DNA from: Deltaproteobacteria bacterium
GTDB lineage: Bacteria > Myxococcota > Kuafuiibacteriia > Kuafuiibacteriales > Kuafuiibacteriaceae
Length of the DNA: 64,000 nt
Assembly (NCBI GenBank): GCA_040218735.1
Contig: JAVJQW010000050.1
Span: 288,001-352,000 of the forward strand
Reading direction: 5' to 3'
Part shown: positions 20,463-64,000 of the stretch, one piece after another
How positions within the stretch are numbered: the first letter of the stretch is position 1
Layout: each line of letters opens with the position of its first letter
Position numbers and translations under genes: made by a program
The notes under the pieces: model-generated
Database searches by the model: none
The model's input: the letters and a program-made list of their open reading frames with translations, nothing else
Told to the model about the DNA's origin: nothing

Positions 20463-20645
20463 CGGGCCGCCCAATTCGACCACCCGCGCGCCACGTTCTG
20501 GCGGCGGGGTGCATCCGTTCGGGCGTTTCGGTCGAAATGTCGAAGGCGGGTCCGTCCGGCGCCGATCGATGCTACGAACGAGGGCGACGGAGGCGTCCAA
20601 GTGGGCCGATTCGGCCCCGCGGACGTACGAGGTTCGAGAGAAACG

Positions 20646-22214
20646 ATGCGAATCCTACTGGTGCAACCCACGCCGTTCGAAGAGGGCCGCCTCGGCCTGG
20701 AGAACATCATGTGGCTCTCAGAGCCCGTCGCACTGACGGCGGTGGCCGGCGCGGTGCCGGAGCACGAGATCGAAATCCTCGACCTGCGCCTCGAACCCGA
20801 GAACGCCCTCGCCCACACCATCAACCGATTCCGGCCGGACATCGTCGGCACCACCTCGATGACCACCGACGCGTATCAGGCGAAGGCCGTGCTGCGCACC
20901 GCGAAGCGGATGCGGCCCAACGTGCTGACCCTCATCGGCGGACACCACCCGACGCTTTCCCCTGAGGAGTTCCGCGAGCCGTACATCGACATCATCGTGA
21001 AGGGTGAAGGTGAACTGACGTTCGCCGAGATCTGCACCGTGCGACAGGCGGCGATCGACAACACACGGGCGGAAGTCGTGGACGCGGAGGCGCTCGCGAA
21101 CCAAACCGCCGAGGGGCTGTCTGGCGTCGACGGCATCGAGTTCTCGGCCGGCGATCGTGGCTGGCTCAGCACCGAGAAGCGCAACCAGCAGAAGGCGCTC
21201 GACGACCTCCCCCGCCCGCGGCGCGACCTCGTGCACAAGTACTACGGTCGCTACTTCTTCACGGTCGCGCAGCCGATGGCGTCGATCTTCACGAGCCGCG
21301 GCTGCAGCTTCGACTGTAACTTCTGTGCGATCTGGGAGTTCTACGACCGGCGCGTCCGCTACCTCTCGGCGGAGGGGATCGCGGACCAGATGGCGGCGTG
21401 TGAGGAGCCGTTCATCTTCCTCCTCGACGACAACTTCCTCACCGACCACAAACGCCTGCGCCGCCTCGTCGAGGTCCTGCGCGAGCGCAAGATCGAGAAA
21501 CACTGGATGACGCAGGGGCGCACCGACTTCATCGCGAGCCACCCCGAGCTGATGGCGGACCTCGCGAGCGTCGGGCTCATGTCCGTGCTCTCCGGGTTCG
21601 AGTCGAACGACGAGGACGCGCTCGCCGCGCTCAACAAGAGCAACACCGTCGAGAACAACCGGCGCGCGATGCAGATCCTCCGCGACAACGGCATCCAGTC
21701 GACCGGCATCTTCATGGCGCGCACGGACTTCGAGAAGGAGGACTTCGACGCGCTGTACGACTATATCAACGACCTCGGCGTGGTCGCGCCGATCGTCACG
21801 ATCCACACGCCGCTGCCGGGCACGCAGCTCGAGCGCAAGATGAAGCAAGACCTCCTCACCGAGGACCGCCGCTTCTTCGATCTGCTGCACGCCGTGACGC
21901 CGACGAAGCTCCCGCGCGAGCAGTTCTACGAGCAGTTCGCGCGACAGCTCTGGGCGACGATGCCGAGCACGATGAAGGCGCTGTCACCGTCGCAGCTGTG
22001 GAAGCGCAAGGCGTTCTGGATGCGCGCGCTGCCGAACGTCCCGCGCTTCGTCTACAACGCGCGACGCAACCGCATCGTGCACAGCGATCCGAAGTCGTAC
22101 CTGAACGACGAGGTCGGCGTGCTCGACGGCAAGGCGCGCACGAACTTCGCCGACAAGGCGAAGGTCACCGCCATCCCGAGCGGCAGCAAGAAGCTGCCGA
22201 TCCTCGCGAGCTGA
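20646..22214 (+). CDS. Cobalamin-dependent radical SAM protein (HpnR-like by resemblance)
   Basis: B12-binding N-domain (PDIVGTT..IGGHHPT..GEGE); SRGCSFDCNFC; DDNF; TPLPGT; FDLLHAV.PTKLP. Confidence 0.9.
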   Translation: MRILLVQPTPFEEGRLGLENIMWLSEPVALTAVAGAVPEHEIEILDLRLEPENALAHTINRFRPDIVGTTSMTTDAYQAKAVLRTAKRMRPNVLTLIGGHHPTLSPEEFREPYIDIIVKGEGELTFAEICTVRQAAIDNTRAEVVDAEALANQTAEGLSGVDGIEFSAGDRGWLSTEKRNQQKALDDLPRPRRDLVHKYYGRYFFTVAQPMASIFTSRGCSFDCNFCAIWEFYDRRVRYLSAEGIADQMAACEEPFIFLLDDNFLTDHKRLRRLVEVLRERKIEKHWMTQGRTDFIASHPELMADLASVGLMSVLSGFESNDEDALAALNKSNTVENNRRAMQILRDNGIQSTGIFMARTDFEKEDFDALYDYINDLGVVAPIVTIHTPLPGTQLERKMKQDLLTEDRRFFDLLHAVTPTKLPREQFYEQFARQLWATMPSTMKALSPSQLWKRKAFWMRALPNVPRFVYNARRNRIVHSDPKSYLNDEVGVLDGKARTNFADKAKVTAIPSGSKKLPILAS

Positions 22215-22222
22215 GGACCACC

Positions 22223-23143
22223 ATGGTTGCTACGCCGATCGAACGACCGCACGCGGTCAACACCGACACCACGCTGGGCGCGCGGCGCTTCCTCAAGGAC
22301 CTCCGCGAAGAGATCCGTTGCCACCCGGGCGTGAACCACATCTTCCTCAACCGCCTCGCGACGATGCCGTTCACGCGCGAGGACTACCTGGTGTTCGGAC
22401 TGCAGCACTACCCGCTGATCAACTGCTTCACGCACTACATGGAGAACCTGTTGATCCGCGCGCCGGGCAGCGACGCCAAGCTGTGGATCGCGAAGGTACT
22501 CGTCGACGAGTACGGCGAAGGCAGTGACGGCGACGATCACTCGACGCTCTACCTGAAGTTCCTGCGCGCCGCGGGCGTCCGCGAGAACCAACTCTCCCGC
22601 ACGCACCTCAACCCGTTCACGATCGACTTCGTCCGGACGCACGTCCACCTCACGACGCAGCGCCCGTTCCTGGAAGGGCTCGGTGCGATCGGCCCCGGTC
22701 ACGAGTGGGCCATCCCGGCGATGTTCGAGTCGATCGTCCCCGGCCTGCGTCGCGCGGGGTTCGCGGAGGACGAGATCCTCTACTTCTGGTTGCACCAGGA
22801 TCAGGACGAGGACCACGGCGCGTGGCTCGAGGAGGCGCTGGTCGACCTCGCCGTCACCACCGAGGCCCGCGATCAGATCCGGCGCGGCGCTCTCGCCTCG
22901 CTCGACGCACGCGAGCGGTTCTGGACCGGCGCGCAGCGCGAGGTCGTCCGGTGGCGCCAGCCGCTGTCCGCCAAGAACGCGCTGCGCAAGCTCCAGCGCG
23001 GCGCGCACACGATCCTCTCTGAGGCCGAAGACCGCTCGCGGGTCTCACTCGGCAAACGCGGCCTCGCCCGGCTCCGTCGGCGCCTGACGCCCATCTACCT
23101 CGACGACGTCCTCCCGCGCCCCGAGCTCGCCCCGCACAAGTAG
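22223..23143 (+). CDS. Heme-oxygenase-like diiron oxidase (TenA/PqqC/CADD fold)
   Basis: DEYGEG..DDH, GHEW, YFWLHQDQDEDH ligand pattern; 8 nt after the radical SAM gene. Confidence 0.85.
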   Translation: MVATPIERPHAVNTDTTLGARRFLKDLREEIRCHPGVNHIFLNRLATMPFTREDYLVFGLQHYPLINCFTHYMENLLIRAPGSDAKLWIAKVLVDEYGEGSDGDDHSTLYLKFLRAAGVRENQLSRTHLNPFTIDFVRTHVHLTTQRPFLEGLGAIGPGHEWAIPAMFESIVPGLRRAGFAEDEILYFWLHQDQDEDHGAWLEEALVDLAVTTEARDQIRRGALASLDARERFWTGAQREVVRWRQPLSAKNALRKLQRGAHTILSEAEDRSRVSLGKRGLARLRRRLTPIYLDDVLPRPELAPHK

Positions 23144-23178
23144 CCGCCCGCCCGGCGCGTTTGTACGATGCGGCGCAC

Positions 23179-24510
23179 GTGATCACGCTGGTCATCGGTG
23201 GCGTCGTCGCCGTTTGGGTCGTCGTCGGCGGCGTCGCCCTCGTCAAGCTGCGCGGCGGCGGGAAGCTCCAGCTCGAAGCCGACGGCTGGGCGTCGGCGGC
23301 GCGCGCGCTCCAGCTCGAACAGCGTCGCGCCTTCTTCGCGCCCGGGCTCGTGCTGGTCGGTCACCACGGCGAGCACGAGGTCAAGGTCACGCGCATCGCG
23401 TCTCAGAGCGGCACCGGTTTCTCGGCGGCGATCCGCATCGGCGGCGTGCGCGGCGACGTCACCGTGAGCCCGACGTGCGACCCGTTCGCCTTCGAGCTGT
23501 CCGGCGTCATCCAGACCGGCGACCCCGACTTCGATCGCACGTTCGAGATCGCCGGGCCCGAGGAGCTCGTGCGCGCGACGTTCGACGACAAGACGCGCCG
23601 GACCGCGTTGGAGCGAACGCCGCGCATGGCGATCAGCAAGGGGCAGATCGAGCTCCCCCTCCGCGACGCTCCGGACGGTGCGACGCTCGAGATCCTCACC
23701 CGCGCCCTCCTCGTCCTCGCGCGCCGCCTCTCCATCCGTGGCGACGACTTCGACGGTCCGATCTGCCGCGTCGCCGCGACGGATCCCTGCGCGGGCGTCC
23801 GGCGCCGCTGCCTCGCGTGGCTCGTGGCCTGCGGCGCACCCGACGCGGCCCACGTCGAGGCGCTGAAGCCCCTCCTCGACGACGAGGATCCCGAGATTCG
23901 TCTCTTCGCCTCGCAGGTGATCGGCGAACAGGCCTGCGCCACGCTCGAAGCGCTCGCGCGCGACGCGACCTGCGCCGACCGCATCCGCGCCGCAGCCTTC
24001 GACGGGGCCGTGGACTTCCTCGCGAGCGCGCGGCGCGTCGCGCTGATCGCCGACCTCGTCGCATCCTCGCCGCCCGCCGCACTGGCGACCGAGCTGCTCC
24101 GCGCGATCGAACGCGACCACCTGAAGCGGCACGCGCCGTTCGTGCGTGCGCACCTCGCCCACGCAGACCTGCACGTCCGCATCGCCGCGGCCGGCGCCGC
24201 GGGCCTCGTCGCCGACGCGAGCTGGGTGGCCGACCTCATCGATCGCCTCGACGACCAGGAGAGCGTGGTCGTCGAAGTGTGCGCCGCGCTCGGCTGCGTC
24301 GGCACGGCCGAAGCCGTGAACGCGCTGCGCGCCGCAGCCGACGCGAGCTCTCGCCGCGCGACTCGGGAGGCGGCGCTCCAAGCGATCGCGTCGATTCAAT
24401 CCCGCGCGGGAGAGCCGGGGCGGCTGTCGGTCGTGGGCGAGGACGACGCCGGCGCGGTGAGCTTCGCGGGCGACGACGGCGCGCTGTCCCTCGAACGTCC
24501 GGAGGACTGA
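23179..24510 (+). CDS. Membrane-anchored HEAT-repeat protein (paralog A)
   Basis: N-terminal TM; LLDDEDPEIRLFA; CAALGCVGT; tail GRLSV..GAVSF..GALS. Confidence 0.7.
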   Translation: MITLVIGGVVAVWVVVGGVALVKLRGGGKLQLEADGWASAARALQLEQRRAFFAPGLVLVGHHGEHEVKVTRIASQSGTGFSAAIRIGGVRGDVTVSPTCDPFAFELSGVIQTGDPDFDRTFEIAGPEELVRATFDDKTRRTALERTPRMAISKGQIELPLRDAPDGATLEILTRALLVLARRLSIRGDDFDGPICRVAATDPCAGVRRRCLAWLVACGAPDAAHVEALKPLLDDEDPEIRLFASQVIGEQACATLEALARDATCADRIRAAAFDGAVDFLASARRVALIADLVASSPPAALATELLRAIERDHLKRHAPFVRAHLAHADLHVRIAAAGAAGLVADASWVADLIDRLDDQESVVVEVCAALGCVGTAEAVNALRAAADASSRRATREAALQAIASIQSRAGEPGRLSVVGEDDAGAVSFAGDDGALSLERPED

Positions 24511-32533: not shown

Positions 32534-33106
32534 TCACACCGTCTTGCGGACCGGGGGCGCAGCTTTGTCGTCGCTCGGCGGCGGACCCGGTGGCTCCTCG
32601 TCGATGATCTCGCGACTGACGAGCTTGTAACGACGGAAGGACGAGTCGAGGTAGACGCGGTTCGTGATCGCGGGCGGGCGATACGTGAACTCGATCTTCT
32701 GCGGCGTGAACGTCCCGAAGATCGCGCGGCTGTCCGCGGAGAGCGTCAGGCGCAGCTTCGCGGTCACCGTCCCGTCGATCTCCGGGACGAGCTCCTTCGG
32801 GAAGCCTTGCGAGACGATCAGCTCCTGACCGTGATCGCGTCGCGTCATGAAAATCGTGCGCCCGCGCAGGATGCCCGTGTACTCCTGGAAGCCGCCGCGC
32901 ATGAGGCGACGACCGCGCACGAACGGACCGAACTGCACGAGCGTGATGCGCTCCGGTTTGCCGCCGCCCAAACCTTCGTCCACGCGCGTCCAGGTCCCCG
33001 CGACACGTATCGTGAAGCCGCGAATGATCCACACGAGGATCGCCACGCCCACGCCGATCAGGAGCAGGTGCCAGAACGCGAGCTCGATCGGTCCTAGACG
33101 AAGCAT
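32534..33106 (-). CDS. Membrane-anchored hypothetical protein
   Basis: N-terminal TM then beta-rich domain. Confidence 0.7.
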
Positions 33107-33182
33107 TTCGAGGCTGGTCCGGGGGGTTTTAGGCGAGTTTGGGCTTTTCGGCCATCCCGCCGTCCTCTATGGTCCTCGGCCC

Positions 33183-35246
33183 ATGGCGCCGAAGGCTTCC
33201 AAGATGTCGAAGGTCCGCAACATCGGGATCGCGGCCCACATCGATGCCGGAAAGACCACGGTCTCCGAGCGCATCCTGTTCTACACCGGCCGCATCCACA
33301 AGACCGGTGAAGTCCACGACGGCGAAGCGACCATGGACTGGATGGAGCAGGAGCGCGCGCGCGGCATCACCATCACCGCGGCCGTCACCTCCTGCCCCTG
33401 GCGGGACCACGACATCCACCTGATCGACACCCCCGGCCACGTCGACTTCACGGTCGAGGTCGAGCGATCCTTGCGCGTCCTCGACGGCGCCGTCGCGGTG
33501 TTCTGCGCCGTGTCCGGGGTCGAGCCGCAGTCCGAGACGGTGTGGCGCCAGGCCGCGCGCTACGGCGTGCCGCGCCTGGCGTTCGTCAACAAGATGGACC
33601 GCATCGGCGCGGACTTCGCCCACGTCGTGGCGGACATCGAGAAGAAGCTCGGCGGCGCCAACCCCGTCCCGATCCAGATCCCGATCGGCGCCGAGTCGGC
33701 GTACGAGGGCATCATCGACCTCGTCGACATGCAGGCCGTGCGTTTCTCCGGGCAGCACGGTGAGGTCGCCGAGCGCGGGGACATCCCGGCCGAGCTCGCG
33801 GACGAGGCCGCCGCCGCGCGCGAGAACCTCCTCGAGAAGCTGTCGGACCTCGACGACGCGCTCGCCGAGAAGTACCTCGGCGGCGAAGAGATCACACGCG
33901 AGGAGATCGTCGAGGGCCTGCGCAAGGGCACCATCGCCAACGCCCTGCAACCCGTGTTGTGCGGGACGGCGCTGCGCGACAAGGGCGTGCTGCCGTTGCT
34001 CGACGCGATCGTCGACTACCTCCCCTCCCCGCTCGACGTGCCGCCCGTCGTGGGCATCGATCCCAAGACCGAGGAGAAGCTCACGCGACCGCCGGATCCG
34101 AAGGCGCCGCTGTCCGCGCTGTGTTTCAAGGTCGCGATGGAGGACGGGCGTCGGCACGTCTTCATGCGGATCTACTCCGGGAAGATGGAGGCCGGCGCGC
34201 CGGTGCTCAACACGACCAACGGCAAGACCGAGCGGGTGGCGCGCCTGTTCAAGACCCACTCACACAAGAAGGAGCGCCTCAAGGAAGCGGTCGCGGGCGA
34301 CATCGTCCTCGCGGCGGGCCTGCGATTTGCGCGCACCGGCGACACACTCTCGGACTCCAAACACCAGATCCGACTCGAGGAGATGAGCTTCCTCAAACCC
34401 GTCATCTCCATCGCGGTCGAGCCGAAGCAGAACAAGGACCTCGAAAAGCTCGGCGAGGCGCTCGGCAAGCTCGCGGACGAGGACCCCACGGTGATGCTGT
34501 CGGAAGACGAGAACACCGGGCAGACGCTGCTCGCGGGGATGGGCGAGCTGCACCTCGAGATCCTCTGCGACCGGCTCGAGAAGGAGTTCAACGTCCCGGT
34601 GAGCTCCGGCAACCCGAGCGTCGTGTACCGCGAGACGGTGCGGAAAGTGGCGCGCGCGGAGGAGCTGTTCGAGCGGATCATCGACGAGGAGAAGAAGGAG
34701 AAGGTCTTCGCCCGCGTCGTCATGGAGGTCGCACCGCGCGACCGCGAGAGCGGGACGCGTTACGTCGACCAGCGCACCGACGCGAACAAGGAAGCCAACT
34801 CGATCAACGACAAGGACTTCGCCGAGATGCGCGAGGGCACGCTCGAAGCACTGCAGGCCGGACCGATCGACGGTTACCCGGTGCAGGACATCGAGCTGCG
34901 GTTGATCGAGGTCGAGACGCGCCCCGGCGAGACGACGACGATCGCGTTGCGGGTCGCGGCGGCGAACGCCGTGCGCGCGGCGCTCGAGCAGGCGGACCCG
35001 GCGACGCTCGCGCCGCTGATGAGCCTGGAGGTCGTCGTGCCCGAGGCGATGACCGGCGCGGTGGTCGGCGACCTGTCGTCGCGCGGCGGGCGCATCGAGG
35101 GTGTGGACACCGAGGGCGACCGGGGCGTCGTACGCGCGACCGTCGCGATGACGTCGATGTTCGGGTACTCGACCGACCTGCGAAACCTCACCGAGGGCCG
35201 CGGCAACTTCTCGATGCGCTTCTCGAAGTTCGACACGCTGGATTGA
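33183..35246 (+). CDS. fusA: Elongation factor G paralog (stand-alone, EF-G2-like)
   Basis: [30 protein letters not shown]; divergent domain IV; no rpsL/rpsG/tuf neighbours. Confidence 0.9.
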
Positions 35247-54702: not shown

Positions 54703-57360
54703 TCACCGACGACGGCGCCAGACGAACAGTGGCAAGAGAGCGAGCGCCCACCAAGCCCCTGCACGGCCGTTCACGCAGCGGCACCCGGTGGCCTCCTCGA
54801 TTCGCGCCGGCGCCGTCACCATCCCCGCTTCGCGCAGCACGAGCTCGGTCACGTGGCCGGCTTCGTCCGCGGCGCGCACGACGATGGCCGCCGTGTCGTT
54901 GACCTCGGGGGCGGGCACGAAGCCGGTGGTGTCCGGGGTGACCTCGGCGAACGCACCGTCCACGCCCAGCGTCACGACGAGCGCGTCTTCGCTGACGACG
55001 TCCCACGCGCGAATGACGACGCCGCCCCGCACGTAGTCCATCTTTGCGTTCAGGCGCGGCGGCTCCGCGTCGATCGTAAACGTGAGCCGCACCGGGCTCG
55101 GGTCGAGCGTGCGGTAGGCGCCGACCTCGCGCGCGCGGACGTCGACCCAGTGGTGGCCCTGCGCGAGGAACTCCGGACGGATGAGCTTCAGACGATCGGT
55201 CGTGAAGAACGGCGTCCAGAACCCACCGTCGACGCGGAGCTGGTACTCGAGCTCGCCGTCGCCGGGCGCCGTTCCGCCGAGGGCGATCTCGGCCTCCGGC
55301 CACACCGGCCCGCCGGGGTTCGACACCGAGAACTCCTGCGCGCTCGGGACGAACAAGGACGTCAGCTCGGCCGTCGTCTCGGCGGCGGCGCTGAGGTTGC
55401 CCACGAAGGACGGGTCGAACGCGAGGTCGGCGTACACCGCGACGTTGGCGTAGCGGCCGTTCGCCTCCACACCGCGGACGCCGAGGATCGACAGGTCGAA
55501 CCCGCCGAGGTCGGCCGGGCCCGGCAACGCAAACGGCGGCAAGGCACCGGTGAAGCCGGGGAGCGCGAGGTTGATGAGCCCGGGGATGGCGTCCTCGAGG
55601 TCCGCCGGGTCCTCGGCGAGCAGGTCGCTGTTCGTGACGCGCACGTTCGTGACCGCGTTCGAGACGTCCCCGACGACGAACTGCAGCTCGTTGTTCGCGG
55701 TGACGAACGCGCCCAGGCCGATCTCGACGTCGGCGGTGACGGTCATGAGGTGGACCCAGCGCTCCTCGATCAACGCCGAGAAGCCGATCTCGAAGTCGTC
55801 GAGGTCCAGCACCAGCAGCGGATCGGTGAGCGTCGGCTCCGTCATCCCCGGCATGACCTCACCCGAACCGATGAGGATCCGCGGCTCGGCGCGCGGGAAG
55901 ATCGACAAGCGCGCCGGGAAGATCGACTTCTCGAAGCGGTCGTCGTGGGTGAGCTGGCGCAGCGAGGAGATCAGCAGCCCCAGCGACCCGGTGTTGAGGA
56001 GGTCGATGTCGTAGGACGACACCGACGTGCACATCAGCCCGGTCGTGTAGACCGTCCACATGAACTGATCCAGGAGCGCCTGCGAGAAGCCGGCCGCGAC
56101 CATGTAGCCCGTCTCGTCGGTGCCGTCCCAGTCGAGGTCGGCCATCGAGGACGTGGGCAGCGGCGCCGGCGCGACGAAGCCAGGGCGGAGGCGGGGGCTG
56201 TCGAGGATCATCGCGCACGCGGGATCCGCGTCCACGACCTCGGCACCACCGAGCGCACCGATGTTGGCGCCCGCGGTGTCGGTCGTGGAGTCACCGCCGA
56301 CCATGAAGGACATGTCGCCGCGCCCGGGGCGCCCCGAGACGAAGCCGGAGAGGAGCTGTGCGAAGTCGAGGCGGCCCTCGATGCCGAGCGTCTGCGGGAC
56401 GATGTCGGCGGTGGCGTCCTCCTCGCAGAGATCGTCCGCGTTGCAGCTGGTCTGCGCCGGGCAGTCCGCGTTGGTCAGACAGGGGCGACCGAGCGCGGCG
56501 TCGACCTCGTCGCCGATGATCGTCGCGAGCTCGTCGGTGAGCTGGCTGACGATGAGCTGCTTGATGAAGCCGAGGTCCGCGATGGCGCACAGGAGCGGGC
56601 CGTCGGTGAAGCGTGGATCGGGGTCGGCGTCGACCTCGACGTAGCTGTTGGGGATCATCGCGGCGACGTCGAGGATCTCGACCTTCAGCTGACCGCCCGT
56701 CCCTACCGGCGGGGTGTAACGATCGAGCGCGGCGGTGATCTGGATGTCCTGCGTCCCCGGGACGCTCGACAGCGACATGACACAATCCATCCCGCCGAGG
56801 GAGTCGTAGCGGAACGGGATGTCGTTGGTTTCGATCTGGACGGTGACGTTGGCGAGGAATTGGTTCGGGCCCATCGGCTGGACCGTGAGCGCCTCGAAGC
56901 GAATCCACGCGAAGCAGCGGCGCGCGCCCGGCTGCGTCGGGTCATCACGGCAGATTGTCGCGTTGCCGCTCACCTGCCGGTCGATCTCGAAGCCCAGCAG
57001 AGGCCCCGCATCGCCCGACACCTGCTCGACGCAGCGCCCCACCTGACACGAAGCGGGATTCGGGGCCCCCGTGGACGTCACGAAGTTGGTGGGGCACGGG
57101 ACGTCGGCGGGCGCGCCGCACGACATCGACGCGTACGCGGACATCAGGTCCTGGAACTCCCGTCCGATCTGGTCGAAGCCGGACTGGGTCATGCGCACCT
57201 GCGCCGCCCGCTCGATCTGCGCCTCGGGCGGGAATCCTCCGGGGACCGGAGCGAGCGCACCGCCGAAGCAGCCGCCGCAGTTCAGCTGACCGGAGCACGC
57301 CCCGGCCATGAGGAGGAGCACCGTGGGAAGTGAGCGCACGGAGGGCGCAGAAAGACGCAT
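54703..57360 (-). CDS. Large surface protein, BPI/LBP (TULIP)-like, with MYXO-CTERM-like tail
   Basis: AGAC lipobox; VRMTQSGFDQI and MVAAGFSQALLDQFMWTVY.TG resemble BPI N/C-domain openings; tail GCRC..WWALALLPLFVWRRRR. Confidence 0.7.
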   Translation of the reverse strand: MRLSAPSVRSLPTVLLLMAGACSGQLNCGGCFGGALAPVPGGFPPEAQIERAAQVRMTQSGFDQIGREFQDLMSAYASMSCGAPADVPCPTNFVTSTGAPNPASCQVGRCVEQVSGDAGPLLGFEIDRQVSGNATICRDDPTQPGARRCFAWIRFEALTVQPMGPNQFLANVTVQIETNDIPFRYDSLGGMDCVMSLSSVPGTQDIQITAALDRYTPPVGTGGQLKVEILDVAAMIPNSYVEVDADPDPRFTDGPLLCAIADLGFIKQLIVSQLTDELATIIGDEVDAALGRPCLTNADCPAQTSCNADDLCEEDATADIVPQTLGIEGRLDFAQLLSGFVSGRPGRGDMSFMVGGDSTTDTAGANIGALGGAEVVDADPACAMILDSPRLRPGFVAPAPLPTSSMADLDWDGTDETGYMVAAGFSQALLDQFMWTVYTTGLMCTSVSSYDIDLLNTGSLGLLISSLRQLTHDDRFEKSIFPARLSIFPRAEPRILIGSGEVMPGMTEPTLTDPLLVLDLDDFEIGFSALIEERWVHLMTVTADVEIGLGAFVTANNELQFVVGDVSNAVTNVRVTNSDLLAEDPADLEDAIPGLINLALPGFTGALPPFALPGPADLGGFDLSILGVRGVEANGRYANVAVYADLAFDPSFVGNLSAAAETTAELTSLFVPSAQEFSVSNPGGPVWPEAEIALGGTAPGDGELEYQLRVDGGFWTPFFTTDRLKLIRPEFLAQGHHWVDVRAREVGAYRTLDPSPVRLTFTIDAEPPRLNAKMDYVRGGVVIRAWDVVSEDALVVTLGVDGAFAEVTPDTTGFVPAPEVNDTAAIVVRAADEAGHVTELVLREAGMVTAPARIEEATGCRCVNGRAGAWWALALLPLFVWRRRR

Positions 57361-57394: not shown

Positions 57395-58258
57395 TCAATT
57401 GGTCTTCGGACGGACGCCGAGCTGGACGAGCCCCTCGTTGAGGCGGCCGGTGCGAAAGCCTTCGAGATCCAGCGTCACGAAGCCAAATCCCGCCGCTTGG
57501 GCGTCCGCGACGATCCGCGCGCGATGTCGGACGACCCCCTCGATCTCCGCCTCGCCGACCTCGATCCGCACCATATCGTCGTTGTCGCGGACCAGGCGGG
57601 CGCGGACGTCGAAGAAGCCCAGCTCCCGCAGGCACACCTCGACCCGCTCCACCCGGCCCAGACGCTCCTCGGTCACCGCCACGCCGTACGGGAGGCGGCT
57701 CGAGAGGCACGCGAGCTGCGGCTTGTCCCAAGTCGGCAGGCCGAGCCGCTTCGACAGCGCGCGGATCTCCGCCTTCGACAGGCCCACTTCGGCGAGCGGG
57801 TGCCGGACGTCGTGCTCCGCGGCCGCCCGGTGCCCCGGGCGAAAGTCCGCGAGGTCGTCCGTGTTGAAGCCGTCGACGACGACGGCGCCCTCGAACGTCT
57901 CGGCCGCGAGCTGGGTCGTGTCGAACAGCTCCGTCTTGCAGTAGTAGCAGCGCGACGTCTCGTTCTTCACGTAGTCCGGACGGTCGAGCTCGTGCGTCGT
58001 GACCACGCGGTGCTCGATCCCGATCGCGACGGCGAGCGCCTTCGCGTCCTCCAGCTCGACCTGCATCAACGACGGCGAGCGCGCCGTCAGCGCTATCGCC
58101 CGCTCACCCAGCGCATCGCAGGCGACCCGTGCGAGGAACGCGGAGTCCACACCGCCCGAGTAGGCGACGACCACGCGACCGTACGAGCGGAGCAGCTCGA
58201 CGAGCGCGCGGTGTTTGGCCTCGACCGCGTCCGAAAGCGTGGCGACGTCCACCGACAT
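57395..58258 (-). CDS. larE: LarE-like ATP-dependent sulfur transferase (PP-loop)
   Basis: SGGVDS, RCYYCK, DFRPG, WDKPQLACLSSR.PYG, GFRTG.LN. Confidence 0.9.
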   Translation of the reverse strand: MSVDVATLSDAVEAKHRALVELLRSYGRVVVAYSGGVDSAFLARVACDALGERAIALTARSPSLMQVELEDAKALAVAIGIEHRVVTTHELDRPDYVKNETSRCYYCKTELFDTTQLAAETFEGAVVVDGFNTDDLADFRPGHRAAAEHDVRHPLAEVGLSKAEIRALSKRLGLPTWDKPQLACLSSRLPYGVAVTEERLGRVERVEVCLRELGFFDVRARLVRDNDDMVRIEVGEAEIEGVVRHRARIVADAQAAGFGFVTLDLEGFRTGRLNEGLVQLGVRPKTN

Positions 58259-58270
58259 CGTGCGTTTCGT

Positions 58271-59326
58271 CTACACGATGCGGTGCGCGCTGGCACCCGC
58301 GGATTCACGCACGATCGGCCGCAGCATCGGCCCCGCGATCGCGCGAATCGCACGCGCGGCGTGTTGGTAGGTCGCGTCGAGCCCCGAGGCGGCCGTCGCG
58401 TCGGCGAGCGCTCCGGCCACCGCCTTCAGGTCCCGCGGGCGGTCCTGAGGCCGCGTCGCGAACAGCGGCGTGAGCACCTCCCCGAGGCGCCCGAGGTTCG
58501 AGTGCGGCGCGAGGAGACGGCGCGCGAGGACGCCGACCGCGTACGCGTCCGCGGCCAGCGAGGGCAACAACCCGTAGCGACGCTCGGGCGCGAGGAACGG
58601 ATCGAGCAGCGGTTCCGAGAGGTCGACGTCGGGCCCCGGCGACCACAACCGAACCGAGCCATCGAGCCCGAGGTGCAGCCGGCGGGGCTCGATGGCCCCG
58701 TGGGGACCGCGGCGGGCGTGGTGCTGCGCCACCCCCTCCGCGAGGTGACAGGCCAGGACCGCGGACACCTCCGCCGGCACCGTGAGGAGCCCGGCTTCGA
58801 GCGCGTCGAAGAGCGCGGTGGCGGGGATCTGAGGCCCTTCGGATTCCACGACCGCGATACGGCCATCGAAGAGCTCCAGCCCGTCATCGACGCTCCGCGG
58901 CTCGCGCCGGACGGTGATCCAACGCTCGTCCGCGAGGCGGAACGCCCGCACCGTCCTATCGGGCGTCGCGTGCTCGTGAGCGACGCGTGCGCCGTCGACC
59001 TGCGCACCGACCAGGCTCGGCCAATCGGGGTCCGCCAGGCTGAACGACAAACGAAGATCGTTGAGGCGCAACACCTCGTCCGGCGCCACGGTGATCGGCG
59101 CGCGGACGCGTTCGTCTTCTCGCGCGAGCCCGGCGCGCCCACGCCCGAGGTCCGTCACGAGGATGCGCCCGCGGCGCACCAGGACATGCACGTGGCGCTC
59201 GGCGAGTCGGTCGTCGTCGATGGTGAGGTCGGCGCGCGGTCCCCGCCCGAGGAAGAGGTCCGGCCCCGGGCGCTCGTGAACCTCCACGCGCCCGCGGCGC
59301 GCCACGACGAACCGCACCGAGGCCAT
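58271..59326 (-). CDS. Degenerate FHA + pseudokinase protein
   Basis: LGRG..D.RLAERH (FHA, Ser lost); HGAIEP, LAPE, DAYAVG, RP kinase C-lobe remnants without HRD/DFG. Confidence 0.65.
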   Translation of the reverse strand: MASVRFVVARRGRVEVHERPGPDLFLGRGPRADLTIDDDRLAERHVHVLVRRGRILVTDLGRGRAGLAREDERVRAPITVAPDEVLRLNDLRLSFSLADPDWPSLVGAQVDGARVAHEHATPDRTVRAFRLADERWITVRREPRSVDDGLELFDGRIAVVESEGPQIPATALFDALEAGLLTVPAEVSAVLACHLAEGVAQHHARRGPHGAIEPRRLHLGLDGSVRLWSPGPDVDLSEPLLDPFLAPERRYGLLPSLAADAYAVGVLARRLLAPHSNLGRLGEVLTPLFATRPQDRPRDLKAVAGALADATAASGLDATYQHAARAIRAIAGPMLRPIVRESAGASAHRIV

Positions 59327-59398
59327 GCCCGGACGATGGTACTCGCGACGCATGGTGTGCGGCCAGGCCTGCAAGCGCAGCGCCGGTCAGGCCGCCTC

Positions 59399-60625
59399 TC
59401 AGGGCCAGGGCTCGACTTCGAGGCTGTCCGCGACGAGCCGGCGGAGCGTGCCGTCCTCCGTCAACACGTGCGTCGCACCCTGGTTCTGCGCCATCGCAGC
59501 GAAGAGCCACGGAGAACGCTCCGTCGCCACGAGGGGAGCCTGATCGACCCCCGCGATGGGCTCCGGAGCCAGCACGAGATCGAAGGAAGAGAGGTCATGC
59601 CCCTCGGCGTCGGCCGCCTTGGCGACCGCCAGCACCCGCTTCGCCCCCGCGCGCAGGACACGCGCACGGGACTCCGCAGCGAGCTCTTCGCCGCCGACCA
59701 CGAAGACCGGGCCGCCGATGATGCGGCGTTGGTTCTGCGCGTACAGGTCACCGACCGCCATGTAGGCGAGCGCCTGGCCGTCCGCGACGAGGCGGACGAT
59801 CGCGCCGGGCTCGAGCCCACCGTCGACGAGCTGGCGCTCGTGGACGTCGAGCACGATCGGCACGCGCCACGGCGTCCCCGCGGGGAGTCGACCCAGGTCC
59901 TGTACGGAGCGAACCTCGGCGCGGCGCATGAAACCCGCGAGGGGCGAGTACAGGCCGCCTGCGAAGCACCGCAGGTCCTCGCGGACCTGGCGCTCCTCGA
60001 TCTCGATCGTGCGCGACTCCGCGAGGGCGTCGAGGCGCTCGGCTTCGGGGGCGTCGATCCGGCGGGGCGCCAACGCACCGGACACCGGGCGCAGCGGGCG
60101 CGCCGCCTCCTTGCCTTCCATCGTTCGGAGCGAGAGGTCGGGCAGCTGCGTCTTCGCCTCCCCGAGGCGACGCTCCACGAAGCGCTTCGCCTCCGCGTCG
60201 TACTGGTACGCCGCGAGGTCCGCGTAGACGCCCTCGCGGACGGACACGACCACGTACACGACGCCCGGCGTGAGCTCGATGCCCTCCTGCACGGCCATCG
60301 CGCGATCCTCCGGCGAGAAGTACGCGCCGGCGTCGCAGTGGGAGTGATAGATGATGCGCTCGTCGAGGCCGGCCTCGCTCGCCTCGTCGAGGACACGCAT
60401 CCGCTCCAGGTCGTTCATGCGGAACGCGTCGCGCCCCGTGCGCGGGAACGCCTCCGGATCCCGTGCGTGATACTTGTCCTGCACGTTCTCCATCGGGACG
60501 ACGCGCGTCAGCTTCGGCCCGTTGCCGAGCACGACGCCGCACGCCTCGACGGGATAGTCGCGGACCGCGTGCGCCTTCAGCGCCTCGACGATCGGATCCG
60601 TGAGCTCGAGCCCGAAGACCTTCAC
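59399..60625 (-). CDS. JAMM/Mov34 (Mec-like) metalloprotease fused to an ATP-sulfurylase PUA-like domain
   Basis: YPVEACG, YHSHCDAGAYFSPED; then GLYSPLAGFM..RLPAGTPWRVPIVLDV; no QxRN or HxGH motifs. Confidence 0.85.
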   Translation of the reverse strand: MKVFGLELTDPIVEALKAHAVRDYPVEACGVVLGNGPKLTRVVPMENVQDKYHARDPEAFPRTGRDAFRMNDLERMRVLDEASEAGLDERIIYHSHCDAGAYFSPEDRAMAVQEGIELTPGVVYVVVSVREGVYADLAAYQYDAEAKRFVERRLGEAKTQLPDLSLRTMEGKEAARPLRPVSGALAPRRIDAPEAERLDALAESRTIEIEERQVREDLRCFAGGLYSPLAGFMRRAEVRSVQDLGRLPAGTPWRVPIVLDVHERQLVDGGLEPGAIVRLVADGQALAYMAVGDLYAQNQRRIIGGPVFVVGGEELAAESRARVLRAGAKRVLAVAKAADAEGHDLSSFDLVLAPEPIAGVDQAPLVATERSPWLFAAMAQNQGATHVLTEDGTLRRLVADSLEVEPWP

Positions 60626-61545
60626 GACTCGCGGACCTCCACGTATCGCGACGCGTGGTCGGGCAGGACCGCCACCACGACCGGCTTCTTGCCGGCGGCG
60701 AGCGCCTCCTCGGCGATCGTCTTCGCGGCGTGAACCACGGCGCCCGCCGAGTGCCCGACGAGCAGGCCTTCGTCGCGGACGAGCGCCTCGGCGCTGTCCC
60801 AGCCCGCGTCCGTCGGGCAGAAGAAGGTCCGCGTCAGCACGGAGCGATCGTAGATCCCCGGGCGGATCGATGTCTCGATGTACTTGAGGCCTTCGAGCCC
60901 GTGGAACTCGTCGTCCGGCTCCACGCCGATGACCTCGATGTCGTCCCGAAAGGCGCGAAGCCGACGCCCCGTGCCCATGACGGTGCCGCTCGTCCCGATG
61001 CCCGCGACGAAGTGCGTGATGCGATCGCCGAGGGCCTCGATGATCTCCTCCGCCGTCCCGTCGTGGTGCGCACGCCAGTTCGCCTCGTTGTTGTACTGGT
61101 TCGTGTAGAAGTAGCGCCCGGGCTGCTCCTCCACGATCTTGCGCACGAGCTCGATCGCGCCGTCGGAGCCGTCCATCGGATCGCTGTAGATGATCTTCGC
61201 GCCGAACGTGCTCAGCATGCTCTTGCGCGCCGACGACACGTTCTCGGGCATCACCAGCGTGACTTCGTACCCGCGCGCCGCACCGTACAGCGCGAGCGCC
61301 ACGCCCGTGTTGCCGCTCGTGGAGTCGATGATCGACATCCCGGGCCGCAGCTCACCGGACTTCTCTGCGGCCTGGATCAGGTTCAACGCCGGGCGGTCCT
61401 TCACGCTGCCGCCCGGGTTCAAGAACTCGAGCTTCGCCCAAACCTCGGCGCCTTCGGGCTCGACCGAACGGAGCCGGGCCATCGGCGTACGACCGACGGC
61501 CTCGGCGATCGACCCGACGGTCCGGGCCCGCGATGGTGCGCTCAC
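60622..61545 (-). CDS. cysM: PLP-dependent cysteine synthase (CysM-type)
   Basis: AKLE.LNPGGSVKDR, TSGNTG, QYNN, GIGTSGT, EGLLVGHSAG. Confidence 0.9.
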   Translation of the reverse strand: MSAPSRARTVGSIAEAVGRTPMARLRSVEPEGAEVWAKLEFLNPGGSVKDRPALNLIQAAEKSGELRPGMSIIDSTSGNTGVALALYGAARGYEVTLVMPENVSSARKSMLSTFGAKIIYSDPMDGSDGAIELVRKIVEEQPGRYFYTNQYNNEANWRAHHDGTAEEIIEALGDRITHFVAGIGTSGTVMGTGRRLRAFRDDIEVIGVEPDDEFHGLEGLKYIETSIRPGIYDRSVLTRTFFCPTDAGWDSAEALVRDEGLLVGHSAGAVVHAAKTIAEEALAAGKKPVVVAVLPDHASRYVEVRES

Positions 61546-61820
61546 CTGCCGCCCGCGATCGCCGGAACGATGCTGACCTCCGTGCCGTCCTCGACCTTGG
61601 TGTCGACGTTGTCGAGGAACCGGATGTCCTCGTCCTTGTAGTAGACGTTCACGAAGCGCTTGGGCGCGCCGTTCTCGTCGCAGATGCGCTCGCCGATGCC
61701 GGGGTGCGCCGCGGTCAGGCTCGCGAGGACGGCCTTGATCGTCTCGCCCTGCACTTCGACCTTGTCATGCCCCTCCGTGAACTTCCTGAGGGGCGTCGGA
61801 ATTCGAACCGTGATTGCCAT
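61542..61820 (-). CDS. MoaD/ThiS/CysO-like ubiquitin-fold sulfur carrier
   Basis: VRIPTPLR, RFVNVY..DEDIRFL, IVPAIAGG-R-stop. Confidence 0.93.
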   Translation of the reverse strand: MAITVRIPTPLRKFTEGHDKVEVQGETIKAVLASLTAAHPGIGERICDENGAPKRFVNVYYKDEDIRFLDNVDTKVEDGTEVSIVPAIAGGR

Positions 61821-62661
61821 GATGTTCTCGAGAACCTCCAAATTTTCGATCGACTGAGAAGTAGCGGTCTCCCGCGTCCACGACGATGCTGATGACGCGT
61901 GCGCCCTCGCTCGCCTCGTCCCGCGCTACACGTGCTGCAGCAGCGGAACCCATCCCGACCAGGATCCCTTCCTTGCGCGCGAGCTCGATGCGCGTTTCGT
62001 AGGCCTCGGGATCGAGCACACACACCACGCGGGTCGCGCCCTTGGGCGCCGACGACCCGCGCACCACGCCGTCCTGCACCGAGACCTCCGCCTGCTCGCA
62101 CCGCACCGTTCCGACGGTCTCCACCGGCCGGCCCGCGGCGACGAACGCGTCCGCGACACCGAACAGCAGCTCACCACCGTTGAGCGGCGAGACGAGCACG
62201 GTCTTTTCGCCGTCGTCGTCGATCATCTCGACGAGCTCCGCACCGAGCGAGGATGAAAACGCCGCGCGCGCGAGCTCGGGCTTCTTCGGCGACACCAGGA
62301 GCGTCCCTTCGATCGTCGACGCGACCGCGTGGGTCTTCTCCAGCTCACCGGGCACCCGCACGACCTCGACCGCGTACCGCCCGAGCAGATCCAGGTGCTC
62401 CGGCAACGTCTTGTCCGGGACCACGACCGTGAGCTTCTTCTTCAACGGCGCAGCCGCCGCCGCAAACGCGAGCGCAGGACTCCCGCTCGCCGCGATGACG
62501 ACACGATCGTCGTCGCACGCGGCCAAAAGCGGACCGGCGATCCGATCGTACGCGCTACCGGACGGGAGCATCATCTCGACCTTCGCGTACAGTGCTGTTC
62601 CCGGCGCGAAACGTTGAAGACGCACGAGCGGCGTCCCGAAGCTGGTCGAGATGAATGACAC
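61765..62661 (-). CDS. Cysteine-synthase-fold protein lacking the PLP lysine
   Basis: GTPLVRL, AKVE..LPSGSAYDR (Tyr at the Lys position), EGILVG, DAGDRYFS. Confidence 0.8.
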   Translation of the reverse strand: MSFISTSFGTPLVRLQRFAPGTALYAKVEMMLPSGSAYDRIAGPLLAACDDDRVVIAASGSPALAFAAAAAPLKKKLTVVVPDKTLPEHLDLLGRYAVEVVRVPGELEKTHAVASTIEGTLLVSPKKPELARAAFSSSLGAELVEMIDDDGEKTVLVSPLNGGELLFGVADAFVAAGRPVETVGTVRCEQAEVSVQDGVVRGSSAPKGATRVVCVLDPEAYETRIELARKEGILVGMGSAAAARVARDEASEGARVISIVVDAGDRYFSVDRKFGGSREHHGNHGSNSDAPQEVHGGA

Positions 62662-62696: not shown

Positions 62697-64000
62697 TCAA
62701 CCGTCGGAGAGGCCCGCGAGCCTCCGGAGCCGCTCGGTCTTCTCGGAGAGCTCCCGCGACACCCGCTCGAGCTGCCGCTCCCGGTCGTCGATCGTGGTCT
62801 CCAGCTCGGTGATCCTCCGCTCCGCCTGGACCTGCGCCTGCTCCGAGGCCTGAAGCTGCGCCCGCAGCCGGTGCGACTCGGATTCCATCGCCGTAGCCTC
62901 CGCCGTCAGCCGCGCAAGCTGCTGGTCGCGGGCCTCGACGTCCGTCCGCAGCCGGTCCACGTCACCCCGCTGCTCCAGCTTCCCGCGCAGGATGTCGCTG
63001 TCCGAGCGCGCCTGCGTGAGCTGCCGCCGCACGAACTCCAGGCCCTCGCGGCCCTGGCGGATCTCCGAGAGCTTCCGCCCGACCTCCGCGCGCGCCTCGT
63101 CCAGCTCACGCGCCGTCCGCTCCGCGAGCGCCTTGAGGCGTTTGACCTCGCCGTCGCGGTCCGCGAGGGCGCGCTCCAGGTTCTGGACCCGACCACGCAA
63201 CGCGTCCGAATTCGACGACGCCCCGGCCTCCAGCTCCACGATGCGCTCACGCGCCGCGGTGAGCGCGGTCTCCAAGTTCGACCGCGACGTGCTGCCGAGC
63301 TCCTGCTCGAGCTGCGAGAGCCGCGCCTCCACCTTGCCCTTCGCCGCCTCGACCTGCTGCCGCTGGTCCTCGACCGTGCGCAGGCGCCCCTCGACCTCTT
63401 CGAGCTTGGCCTGCCAACGCGTCTCCTTCTGCTGCACTTCGAGCTCGAGGTGACGCCGCTGGCGCTCGGCGTGCTCCGCGCGGCCCTCCGCTTCGAGGGA
63501 TCGCTGCTCGAGCGTCTTGCGCTTCTCCTCCAGCCGCTGCGCCCGCGCCTCGGACTCCTTCGAAAACGCCTCCGCGTGCCGCGCGCGATCCGCACTGCGC
63601 TCCGACTCCGCGCGCATCCGCTCGACGTCTGCCTCGGCCTTCGACAGCTTCGACTCCGCGTTGGACCGACGCTCCTCCAGCTGCGCGATCGTGAGCTTCG
63701 TTTCGTCGAGCTCCTTCGCGACGCGCGTCGCTTCCGCCTCGGCGCGCTCTGCGCGTATCCGCTGCTCCTCGGCCAACGCCGGGTTCGAGCCCGCGAGCGC
63801 GCGGTTCGCCTCCGCGAGGCGCGACTCCGTCTCTTCGCGCGCCTGCTGCTCGGCCTGCGCGGCGTCCCAGCCTTCCTTCGCACGCGCCGACTGCTCCGCG
63901 ACCTGATCGCGCAGCGCCGTGATCTCCGACTTCAGCCCGTCGCGTTCGCCGGCCGTCTGCGCGAGCCGCGCGACGCGTTCCTGCCCCGCCTTCCGCTCGG
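62697..64000 (-). CDS. Long coiled-coil protein (5'-partial; continues beyond the window)
   Basis: Heptad-rich E/R/A/L sequence; the frame stays open to the window edge. Confidence 0.8.
   Translation of the reverse strand, partial: ERKAGQERVARLAQTAGERDGLKSEITALRDQVAEQSARAKEGWDAAQAEQQAREETESRLAEANRALAGSNPALAEEQRIRAERAEAEATRVAKELDETKLTIAQLEERRSNAESKLSKAEADVERMRAESERSADRARHAEAFSKESEARAQRLEEKRKTLEQRSLEAEGRAEHAERQRRHLELEVQQKETRWQAKLEEVEGRLRTVEDQRQQVEAAKGKVEARLSQLEQELGSTSRSNLETALTAARERIVELEAGASSNSDALRGRVQNLERALADRDGEVKRLKALAERTARELDEARAEVGRKLSEIRQGREGLEFVRRQLTQARSDSDILRGKLEQRGDVDRLRTDVEARDQQLARLTAEATAMESESHRLRAQLQASEQAQVQAERRITELETTIDDRERQLERVSRELSEKTERLRRLAGLSDG

Follow-up and report, generated by a model that had tools for sequence, protein, structure and literature searches.

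INTRODUCTION

The mec-cysO-cysM genes of Mycobacterium tuberculosis reportedly encode a thiocarboxylate route to cysteine. The HcyS/HcyD/HcyF route to methionine in Wolinella is said to be an example of the ThiS/MoaD-JAB-E1 neighborhood type, and its JAB enzyme reportedly removes a C-terminal extra residue from the carrier. Here we describe a six-gene cluster in which a carrier module of this kind is followed by the gene for LarE, in a 64,000-nucleotide (nt) stretch of DNA (positions 288,001 to 352,000 of contig JAVJQW010000050.1, assembly GCA_040218735.1; referred to here as the window) from a Deltaproteobacteria bacterium of the Myxococcota. With moderate confidence, we read the cluster as a derived and partly reduced ThiS/MoaD-JAB-E1-cysteine synthase operon for sulfur assimilation, into which a canonical LarE of the [4Fe-4S] cluster type was recruited for its sulfur supply.

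Two described groups of neighborhoods are closest to this arrangement. In Table 1 of Iyer, Burroughs and Aravind (2006; PMC1779556), row 4c lists ThiS/MoaD-JAB-E1 neighborhoods with cysteine synthase, and row 4e lists those with SirA and sulfate-assimilation genes; SirA (TusA family) is a constant part of row 4e, whose genes also encode ATP sulfurylase and adenosine 5′-phosphosulfate (APS) kinase. Cluster-type LarE is given as the majority form of the enzyme (PMC9283937). According to that paper, the sulfur donor of this form is known only from an in vitro experiment with IscS, and its reloading in the cell only from in vitro work with a foreign cysteine desulfurase. Related precedents are TtuA-TtuB and Ncs6-Urm1, in which a tri-Cys [4Fe-4S] PP-loop enzyme is fed by a ubiquitin-like thiocarboxylate (PMC9283937, PMC6225789), and the carrier-dependent thioacid siderophores and cases of carrier borrowing covered in PMC6225789.

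RESULTS

A carrier and cysteine synthase operon that ends in larE

Six co-directional minus-strand genes, all with open frames, were recognized between positions 57395 and 62661 from open reading frame (ORF) calls and Pfam and NCBIfam matches (Table 1). At a G+C content of ~70%, ORF lists for the window are crowded with shadow frames, and the genuine row was picked out by the G+C content of third codon positions (GC3), which is coding-type in the six genes (0.79 to 0.92, versus ~0.70 overall). Successive genes are spaced by −56, −4, −4, 72, and 12 nt. Both −4 junctions (cysO/cysM and cysM/JAMM) are GTGA stop/start overlaps, and the larE gene lies 12 nt from its upstream neighbor. A first-pass annotation, made from the sequence alone, had proposed this six-gene row with a mec-cysO-cysM-type carrier route as its core; Pfam, NCBIfam, GC3, and spacing bear out the row, and the gene identities support the core.

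Like mec-cysO-cysM, the unit encodes a ThiS-fold carrier, a CysM-type pyridoxal phosphate (PLP) enzyme, and a JAMM hydrolase in one co-directional row. It differs in that the JAMM domain is fused to a PUA_2 domain and a dead ATP-sulfurylase remnant, in that the unit adds a lysine-less CysK paralog, an FHA-pseudokinase, and LarE, and in that the carrier has one residue after its GG. In relatives of the locus, moreover, the E1 enzyme lies within the cluster and is fused to TusA rather than to rhodanese. The fuller cluster of those relatives, with ThiF(-TusA) and a miniature ThiF (miniThiF), matches rows 4c and 4e of the published table (PMC1779556): carrier, JAB, a rhodanese-less E1 with a SirA/TusA module, cysteine synthase, ATP sulfurylase, and APS kinase genes occur together. 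Unlike in the tabulated rows, ATP sulfurylase is here a truncated remnant on the JAB protein, APS kinase survives in one related locus only (L011), and sulfite reductase and transporters are not present. A PP-loop enzyme is nowhere mentioned in PMC1779556, whereas LarE is the steadiest neighbor in our loci.

The window lacks LarB, LarC, and a MoeB/MoeZ activator, as the first-pass annotation had stated and as Pfam and tblastn agree. By Pfam, 35 further ORFs of the window included no ThiF/MoeB, LarA, LarB, LarC, or full ATP sulfurylase; the best tblastn match of four ThiF queries to the window had an E value of only 0.089, and Paenibacillus LarA-like, LarB, and LarC queries gave nothing at E ≤ 0.01. 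The E1-type activator (MoeZ/ThiF) expected for a mec-cysO-cysM route is therefore not found within the 64 kb. Searches for expression signals were likewise negative: Rfam yielded no riboswitch or other RNA between 54000 and 64000 (E ≤ 0.1), a terminator scan was at chance (5 sites versus 3.3 ± 2.0 expected), and a promoter scan found none, also at chance level.

Each flank of the cluster, at a distance of 34 to 35 nt, holds a minus-strand gene whose product matches no family. One (54703 to 57360) encodes a secreted-looking protein of 885 amino acids (aa) with a Cys-rich, hydrophobic, and Arg-rich C-terminal tail; the other (62697 to 63998) encodes a long coiled-coil protein.

larE is the most constant neighbor of the JAMM-PUA gene

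One genome per species was scanned for relatives, which yielded 15 loci (L001 to L015), all in Myxococcota-type metagenome-assembled genomes. Synteny was read by tblastn, hidden Markov models (HMMs), and Pfam over flanks of up to 8 kb, shorter at contig ends. The fuller gene order is (p)CysK-ThiF(-TusA)-CysO-miniThiF-CysM-JAMM(-PUA)-[FHA-pseudokinase]-LarE. In the two fullest loci (L004 and L001) it runs from the coiled-coil gene through pseudo-CysK, ThiF, CysO, miniThiF (120 aa), CysM, JAMM-PUA, and [FHA-pseudokinase] to LarE and the [885-aa secreted protein].

Nine loci carry a full-length JAMM-PUA gene (the window, L001 to L006, L010, and L012), and larE lies downstream of it in 8/9, the exception being L010. 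The FHA-pseudokinase gene is present in six of the nine and truncated in L012. Upstream, the coiled-coil gene is found in 6/8 evaluable loci; downstream, 5/9 loci encode the 885-aa secreted protein. Counts for the remaining genes in this set were 4/9 for CysM, 4/8 for CysO, 4/8 for ThiF, and 3/8 for pseudo-CysK. Adjacency of LarE to JAMM-PUA is thus steadier than that of any other neighbor, CysM included (8/9 versus 4/9), and the linkage holds despite variation in the FHA-pseudokinase gene, a PHP gene, the downstream gene, and the entire CysO-CysM cassette. The first-pass annotation would have given up its joint system had larE and the FHA gene been unlinked in relatives and larBC lain elsewhere; instead, larE and the FHA gene are both linked in most of these loci.

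Two loci show the linkage in altered settings. L003 has ThiF-TusA, CysO, miniThiF, JAMM-PUA, and LarE without CysM. L011, from a more distant genome with other flanks and a stand-alone JAMM gene, reads ThiF-CysO-miniThiF-CysM-JAMM-APS kinase (CysC)-LarE. No LarE was found in the 2.5 to 8 kb available downstream in the Sandaracinus-like loci L007 to L009 and L015, and neither LarB nor LarC was found, within up to 8 kb, in any of L001 to L015, eight of which carry LarE.

Three further features of the region between JAMM-PUA and larE were recorded. In L002, a 1.7-kb insertion (1576 to 3313) separates JAMM-PUA from the FHA-pseudokinase gene and contains two or three ORFs of high GC3 that match nothing in Pfam. 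In L006, a PHP-domain (phosphoesterase) gene (10337 to 11161) lies between the FHA-pseudokinase gene and LarE. What looked like a JAMM-PUA/FHA fusion ORF in L004 was rejected as a shadow frame, the two genes lying in different frames.

Table 1 Coordinates and supporting matches of the cluster genes and domains, with related features from other loci
Feature	Sequence	Position	Strand	Evidence or remark
Pseudo-CysK	Window	61765-62661	-	PALP 1e-31; Tyr in place of Schiff-base Lys
ThiS/CysO-like carrier, 92 aa	Window	61542-61820	-	ThiS 6.2e-13
CysM, PLP cysteine synthase	Window	60622-61545	-	PALP 5.6e-63; catalytic Lys present
JAMM+PUA_2 protein, 408 aa	Window	59399-60625	-	Prok-JAB 1.8e-16, PUA_2 4.5e-20
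JAMM/MPN+ metalloprotease domain, Mec-like	Window	60176-60625	-	Prok-JAB 1.8e-16
PUA_2 domain, as at ATP sulfurylase N terminus	Window	59723-60091	-	PUA_2 4.5e-20
Shortened ATP-sulfurylase catalytic-domain remnant, ~110 aa (putative)	Window	59402-59740	-	Atlas model only; undetected by sequence models
FHA-pseudokinase gene	Window	58271-59326	-	Weak FHA; start codon set from orthologs
Degenerate FHA domain	Window	59042-59263	-	FHA 20.5 bits versus cut-off 20.7
Kinase-like C-lobe without catalytic residues	Window	58406-58876	-	hhalign to window kinase
LarE, CxxC-C ([4Fe-4S]) type	Window	57395-58258	-	TIGR00268 306.8 bits versus cut-off 150
miniThiF	L001	6689-7060
miniThiF	L003	7203-7946
miniThiF	L004	~6724-7084
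miniThiF	L005	7586-7951
miniThiF	L011	~5499-5873
miniThiF	L013	7661-7978
miniThiF	L014	7507-7974
Plasmid LarE loci with LarB and/or LarC	Paenibacillus; Embleya (L016); Streptomyces (L017); Sulfitobacter (L019); Clostridium
Plasmid LarE locus without LarB/LarC	Tepidibacter			Stand-alone larE
LarE fusions to APS kinase, CysN GTPase (Paradesulfitobacterium), and uroporphyrinogen-III synthase	P0211, P0213, P0214, P0217, P0212

The activator appears to have been deleted recently from the window lineage

The first-pass annotation was right that the window has no activator, but this absence is not a trait of the family: ThiF lies within the cluster in 9/15 related loci, fused to TusA in L003, L005, and L014. 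The miniThiF gene, found in 7/15, is likewise missing from the window. Its product (~105 to 250 aa) is encoded between cysO and cysM or JAMM; it retains the N-terminal RYxRQ...G..GQ helix of ThiF and a C-terminal helix and has neither the GxGGxG loop nor the mid-domain. The full ThiF genes of the clusters with miniThiF begin right at the GxGGxG loop.

At the corresponding site, window positions 61765 to 61830 resemble a deletion scar, in which pseudo-CysK runs into the ribosome-binding site and coding region of cysO and ThiF and miniThiF are gone. The last 21 residues of pseudo-CysK are a read-through tail that overlaps cysO by 56 nt and has a GC3 of 0.43, versus 0.82 for the core, and a relative with 83% identity stops just short of this tail. 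Since relatives hold ThiF and the pseudo-CysK stop codon has been lost together with a low-GC3 tail, the absence of ThiF and miniThiF is best explained as a recent, lineage-specific deletion and not as a design feature of the family.

LarE is an ordinary cluster-type enzyme

LarE, an ATP-dependent sulfur insertase, matched TIGR00268 (P2CMN sulfur insertase) over profile positions 2 to 259 of 259 and aligned almost without gaps to the Lactiplantibacillus enzyme (PDB 5udq; 5.9e-45). Its cysteines are C104, C107, and C184, the CxxC lying 80 residues upstream of the third-Cys site. Counted by hand in the 5udq alignment, Ala183 occupies the position of the sacrificial Cys176 of the Lactiplantibacillus enzyme, and the Cys follows one residue on. 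A CxxC-C motif with this one-residue shift is the pattern described for the [4Fe-4S]-dependent Thermotoga LarE and for "most LarE homologs" in PMC9283937, and with the SGGxDS PP-loop, Ala at 176, and the Ser/Arg/Arg set the window enzyme resembles that of Thermotoga maritima (PMC9283937). S187, R219, and R221 are the equivalents of Ser180, Arg212, and Arg214, which are proposed in that paper to bind the substrate phosphate. Together with SGGVDS and CxxC-C, they are invariant in 9/9 cluster-linked LarE proteins.

Among 27 LarE domains compared, LarB and LarC fusions included, CxxC-C, R219, and R221 were present in all and S187 in 26 (Thr in P0226). SGGxDS was also found in 17 other LarE domains that span that part of the protein, which is missing from the truncated LarB fusion P0222. 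The window LarE is 44% identical to a Paenibacillus larE product encoded in a larA-like/larE/larB/larC row. In a quick maximum-likelihood tree, the eight JAMM-PUA-linked LarE proteins form one clade (Shimodaira-Hasegawa-like approximate likelihood ratio test [SH-aLRT] support of 97), LarE of L011 pairs with an APS-kinase-fused LarE (96), CysN-LarE fusions form a separate clade (98), and LarB/LarC-linked LarE proteins are scattered among the clades. By every sequence criterion, then, the window LarE is an ordinary member of the cluster-type family. Because it is identical at the key residues to LarB/LarC-linked LarE proteins and nested among them, the "unknown target" of the first-pass annotation is less likely than the normal substrate.

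LarE is fused to sulfate-activation enzymes in other lineages

Seventeen longer LarE-containing proteins were found. They comprise three LarB fusions, one LarC fusion, one fusion to APS kinase (CysC), and three to CysN; the others are HemD, Nudix, and HAD fusions and some proteins without a named second domain. The CysN parts score 352 to 357 bits (cut-off, 336), and one belongs to an NCBI protein of Paradesulfitobacterium. In one Paradesulfitobacterium genome the LarE part is also listed alone, as a 267-aa protein, so that this fusion rests on an uninterrupted frame.

The CysC-LarE and CysN-LarE fusions fall in two separate clades and, as independent events on this tree, tie LarE to sulfate activation beyond the Myxococcota. 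Overall, the steadiest partners of LarE are sulfate-activation modules (the ATP-sulfurylase [Sat] remnant on the JAMM protein, the APS kinase of L011, and the CysC and CysN fusions) rather than the carrier. The larE gene has thus left larBC and joined sulfur-assimilation genes, and a comparable association arose at least twice.

LarE was also followed in six plasmid loci from other phyla (Table 1), Embleya L016 and Streptomyces L017 by tblastn of all cluster proteins and the other four by annotation tables. LarB and/or LarC adjoin LarE in 5/6 of them. In Sulfitobacter L019, the LarE relative is a 261-aa ORF (4986 to 5771) with larB directly downstream. Relatives on proteobacterial plasmids (L019 and H63 to H85) match query residues ~18 to 195 only and are annotated "adenine nucleotide alpha hydrolase"; the Rhizobium relative H74 overlaps a LarC-family gene.

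The carrier, CysM, and the JAMM domain retain their functional motifs

The carrier begins at an ATG behind GGAGG, ends in AIAGGR (GG plus one Arg), and is 41 to 74% identical to the carriers of seven related loci. Among the eight carriers aligned, the GG is invariant, and five have a single extra residue after it, a feature that fits trimming by the JAMM protein. CysM has all of the motifs GGSVKDR, TSGNTG, and GIGTSGT, and it matches the CysM/O-phosphoserine sulfhydrylase 3dki in the PDB (also 3dwg; 1e-59). Its score against the cysM model TIGR01138 (312 bits) lies under the curated cut-off of 394, and curated equivalog cut-offs were not reached. In the JAMM domain, which matches PDB 2kcq at 2.2e-14, the E...HxH...S...D motif is complete, and E27, H94, S95, H96, S104, and D107 do not vary among 21 sequences.

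Three degenerate domains are conserved

The count of three degenerate enzyme domains in the first-pass annotation holds, the third being the C terminus of the JAMM protein (PUA_2 plus ATP-sulfurylase remnant). Pseudo-CysK has SGSAYDR opposite GGSVKDR of CysM, which places a Tyr at the Schiff-base Lys, AASGSPA in place of the TSGNTG Asn loop, and PLNGGELL in place of the G(T/I)GTxGT phosphate loop. Its L001 and L004 orthologs carry these changes too, and the corresponding upstream paralog in L007 and L008 retains the lysine. An exhaustive search (E ≤ 0.001) returned 795 relatives. Tyr, Phe, or Trp takes the place of the lysine in 22/22 of their best representative clusters, and the position is aromatic in 28 of the 60 full-length rows aligned.

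The family profile of the PUA_2 domain of the JAMM protein matches the ATP sulfurylases 8a8d (1e-20) and 3cr8 (4.3e-20). Residues 296 to 408, which follow it, gave no match to Pfam PF01747 or any other sequence model, the catalytic domain being incomplete; in the Atlas model, they align with ATP-sulfurylase clusters over 111 to 113 residues at a template modeling (TM) score of 0.76 to 0.79, and an Atlas feature score of 0.84 is a lead only. An AQNxGAT block is invariant within the remnant in the 21-sequence alignment. The His and Arg motifs that we take to bind the nucleotide in ATP sulfurylase are not visible in the JAMM-PUA family alignment. Fifty homologs of the JAMM-PUA fusion were found, 46 with both Pfam domains and some with as little as 37% identity; those with a named organism are all from Myxococcota or "Deltaproteobacteria."

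In the FHA-pseudokinase protein, the FHA domain falls just under the Pfam cut-off (Table 1), and the family profile reaches solved FHA domains at 6.2e-7. The Ser of S-x-x-H and the Asn of S-x-N-G are phosphate-contacting residues of FHA domains; here, the first position is invariably Ala, and at the second no Asn is conserved. The C terminus gave no Pfam Pkinase match. It aligned with the window's own Ser/Thr kinase by hhalign (probability, 84%; E, 7.2e-6), with HGAIEPRR opposite HRDISPKN, SPGP opposite DLGLG, and the APE and following helices retained; the family profile matched the solved kinase StkP at 1.2e-4, and residues 115 to 360 had Atlas features of 0.93 to Pkinase clusters. All 12 orthologs share the HG dipeptide and the PGP block, and the position of the catalytic Asp is Ala or Leu, never Asp. 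The pseudokinase assignment is a probable one that draws on profiles and Atlas features, and that of the Sat remnant on profiles and Atlas's own model.

Ratios of nonsynonymous to synonymous substitution rates (dN/dS) were taken against L002, the closest locus, whose sequence ends inside cysM; the other loci are too diverged. LarE had the lowest ratio (0.10), followed by JAMM-PUA (0.21), the downstream secreted protein (0.27), and the pseudokinase gene (0.32). Since the dead domains are conserved, they are presumably used and not decaying, as the first-pass annotation had held, and we class pseudo-CysK, the JAMM-fused Sat remnant, and the FHA-pseudokinase as conserved noncatalytic proteins.

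DISCUSSION

A sulfur-assimilation operon that could supply LarE

In the account that we favor, family membership suggests that the JAMM domain would trim the carrier to its GG end, after which a ThiF-type E1, encoded within the cluster in relatives and presumably elsewhere in this genome, would adenylate and thiocarboxylate it; in relatives, TusA would act as a persulfide relay. CysM would then build a carrier-cysteine adduct from the thiocarboxylate, and the JAMM domain would cleave it. LarE would have been recruited for the sulfur of the assimilation route, which its [4Fe-4S] cluster needs for reloading. Co-expressed with the sulfur-supplying pathway, it would carry out its usual ATP-dependent conversion of carboxylate to thiocarboxylate, most likely giving the bis-thiocarboxylate from which the nickel-pincer cofactor is normally made, together with LarB and LarC from genes presumed to lie elsewhere. 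The dead proteins may be partners or regulators of their active relatives, for instance through pairing of pseudo-CysK with CysM. Such a functional link, in which the pathway is the sulfur source that reloads the LarE cluster, could well exist.

The proximal donor to LarE would be either the carrier thiocarboxylate, as TtuB is for TtuA, or sulfide or cysteine from the pathway. Like TtuA, LarE belongs to the PP-loop superfamily and has the same cluster arrangement, and a ThiS-fold carrier and, in relatives, an E1 are encoded alongside (PMC9283937, PMC6225789). Unlike TtuA, which acts on tRNA, LarE acts on a pyridinium nucleotide and has no extra carrier-docking domain. As in the thioacid pathways described in PMC6225789, a ThiS-type carrier would supply the sulfur for converting the carboxylate of a small molecule to a thiocarboxylate, and a carrier of primary metabolism can serve a second pathway; acid activation in those pathways is by acyl-CoA-synthetase and CoA-transferase enzymes and not by a PP-loop/[4Fe-4S] enzyme. 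Sulfur transfer from carrier to LarE is therefore plausible. The narrower proposal, that a CysO-type thiocarboxylate matured and recycled by the JAMM-pseudo-sulfurylase is the physiological donor that reloads the LarE cluster, we regard as tentative and rather unlikely. If it were true, one carrier would feed both cysteine synthesis and the thiocarboxylates of the nickel pincer, a TtuB/TtuA-like relay for a cofactor, and pseudo-CysK, the Sat remnant, and the pseudokinase would divide the carrier among these two clients.

Several observations weigh against a recruited LarE. Gene order is widely conserved in the clade, including the seemingly unrelated coiled-coil gene (6/8) and secreted protein (5/9) on either side, and L003 retains YebC-RuvB-LpxC downstream as the window does; part of the LarE linkage may thus be inheritance rather than selection. 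L005, L006, and L012 keep LarE without a nearby carrier gene, and L010 has JAMM-PUA without LarE. Among the six plasmid loci, none has carrier, E1, or JAMM genes beside LarE, so that the adjacency is not confirmed outside the Myxococcota, and LarB/LarC adjoin LarE in 5/6, unlike in the window and the eight LarE-carrying relatives. Fusions to ThiS, ThiF, or JAB do not occur among the 17 longer LarE proteins. The account also assumes that LarB, LarC, and the E1 are encoded elsewhere in the genome.

Many of the same observations favor a less probable but serious alternative, that LarE is a syntenic neighbor only, beside a unit made up of cysO-cysM-JAMM and accessory pseudoenzymes, and takes its sulfur from a cysteine desulfurase. 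It fits the retained flanking genes, the persistence of LarE in L006 and L012 without CysO, CysM, and ThiF, the lack of carrier-type fusions, the stand-alone larE in 1/6 plasmid loci, and the in vitro reloading of Thermotoga LarE by IscS described in PMC9283937. It does not readily explain why adjacency to LarE (8/9) is the steadiest in the set and outlasts insertions, deletions, and changed flanks, why L011 joins LarE to the cassette without the backbone genes, or why only 12 nt separate larE from the upstream gene, and in other lineages LarE is tied to sulfur assimilation by CysC-LarE and CysN-LarE fusions that arose independently.

A third explanation, that LarE itself makes the carrier thiocarboxylate in the ThiF-less window lineage by adenylating the C-terminal Gly carboxylate and thiolating it from its cluster, is very improbable. 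The 64 kb contain no ThiF homolog, although most relatives have one in the cluster, LarE is strongly conserved (dN/dS, 0.10), and its chemistry proceeds from carboxylate through acyl-adenylate to thiocarboxylate (PMC11796402). However, ThiF and LarE occur together in L001, L003, L004, L005, and L011, the substrate-phosphate residues are invariant and identical to those of LarB/LarC-linked LarE proteins, and the contig recorded for the window's FHA-pseudokinase protein is 11.5 Mb long, which leaves ample room for another E1.

That the locus is a standard mec-cysO-cysM set amid decaying genes is hardly tenable. The activator and miniThiF are deleted, the pseudo-CysK stop is lost, with a low-GC3 tail running into cysO, and three domains lack catalytic residues; but every frame is open, the pseudokinase evolves under constraint close to that of its neighbors (dN/dS of 0.32 versus 0.21 to 0.27), the lysine substitution recurs across the pseudo-CysK family, and homologs as distant as 37% identity retain the JAMM-PUA fusion, whose remnant has invariant blocks, so that this explanation already fails on the conservation data. 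Least credible of all is a ubiquitin-like (Ubl) conjugation or anti-phage system of carrier, JAMM, and FHA/kinase signaling in place of sulfur metabolism: carrier, JAMM, and (in relatives) E1 do make up the parts list of bacterial Ubl-conjugation systems (PMC1779556), and FHA and kinase-like modules suggest signaling, but none of the six proteins matches any of 5027 PADLOC models (E ≤ 0.001), no E2-like gene was seen in the Pfam/HMM reading of the window cluster and related loci, and CysM, the TusA fusions, the Sat remnant, and APS kinase indicate sulfur assimilation.

The core of the operon (ThiS/JAB/E1/cysteine synthase) is already known. Literature searches that covered few subscription journals did not find miniThiF, the FHA-pseudokinase, the CysK family without the lysine, the JAMM-sulfurylase-remnant fusion, or the stable place of larE with the CysC- and CysN-LarE fusions. 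If LarE is a recruited client, the operon may show where this enzyme gets its sulfur: the stable place of larE in a carrier/JAMM/sulfate-activation operon, with the two kinds of fusion, offers a testable sulfur route to the nickel-pincer cofactor. If LarE is a mere neighbor, the finding is a clade-specific elaboration of a known cysteine operon. The lysine-less CysK family, the JAMM-fused sulfurylase remnant, and, in relatives, the miniature ThiF are conserved pseudoenzymes from the pathway's own families, and these three provide material for studying how dead paralogs regulate sulfur trafficking.

Other genes in the window

Three regions away from the cluster were recorded. The gene at 3786 to 5420 (minus strand) codes for a bacterial annexin, in which Pfam recognizes four annexin repeats (9.8e-102). 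A plus-strand row at 20601 to 24510 encodes a B12-binding radical SAM enzyme, a haem-oxygenase-like iron enzyme (Haem_oxygenas_2), and a HEAT-repeat protein, and is possibly a small modification or natural-product unit. At 32847 to 35246 (plus strand), a 799-aa EF-G-like GTPase carries an N-terminal extension of ~120 residues ahead of GTP_EFTU, which may be a mere artifact of the start codon chosen.

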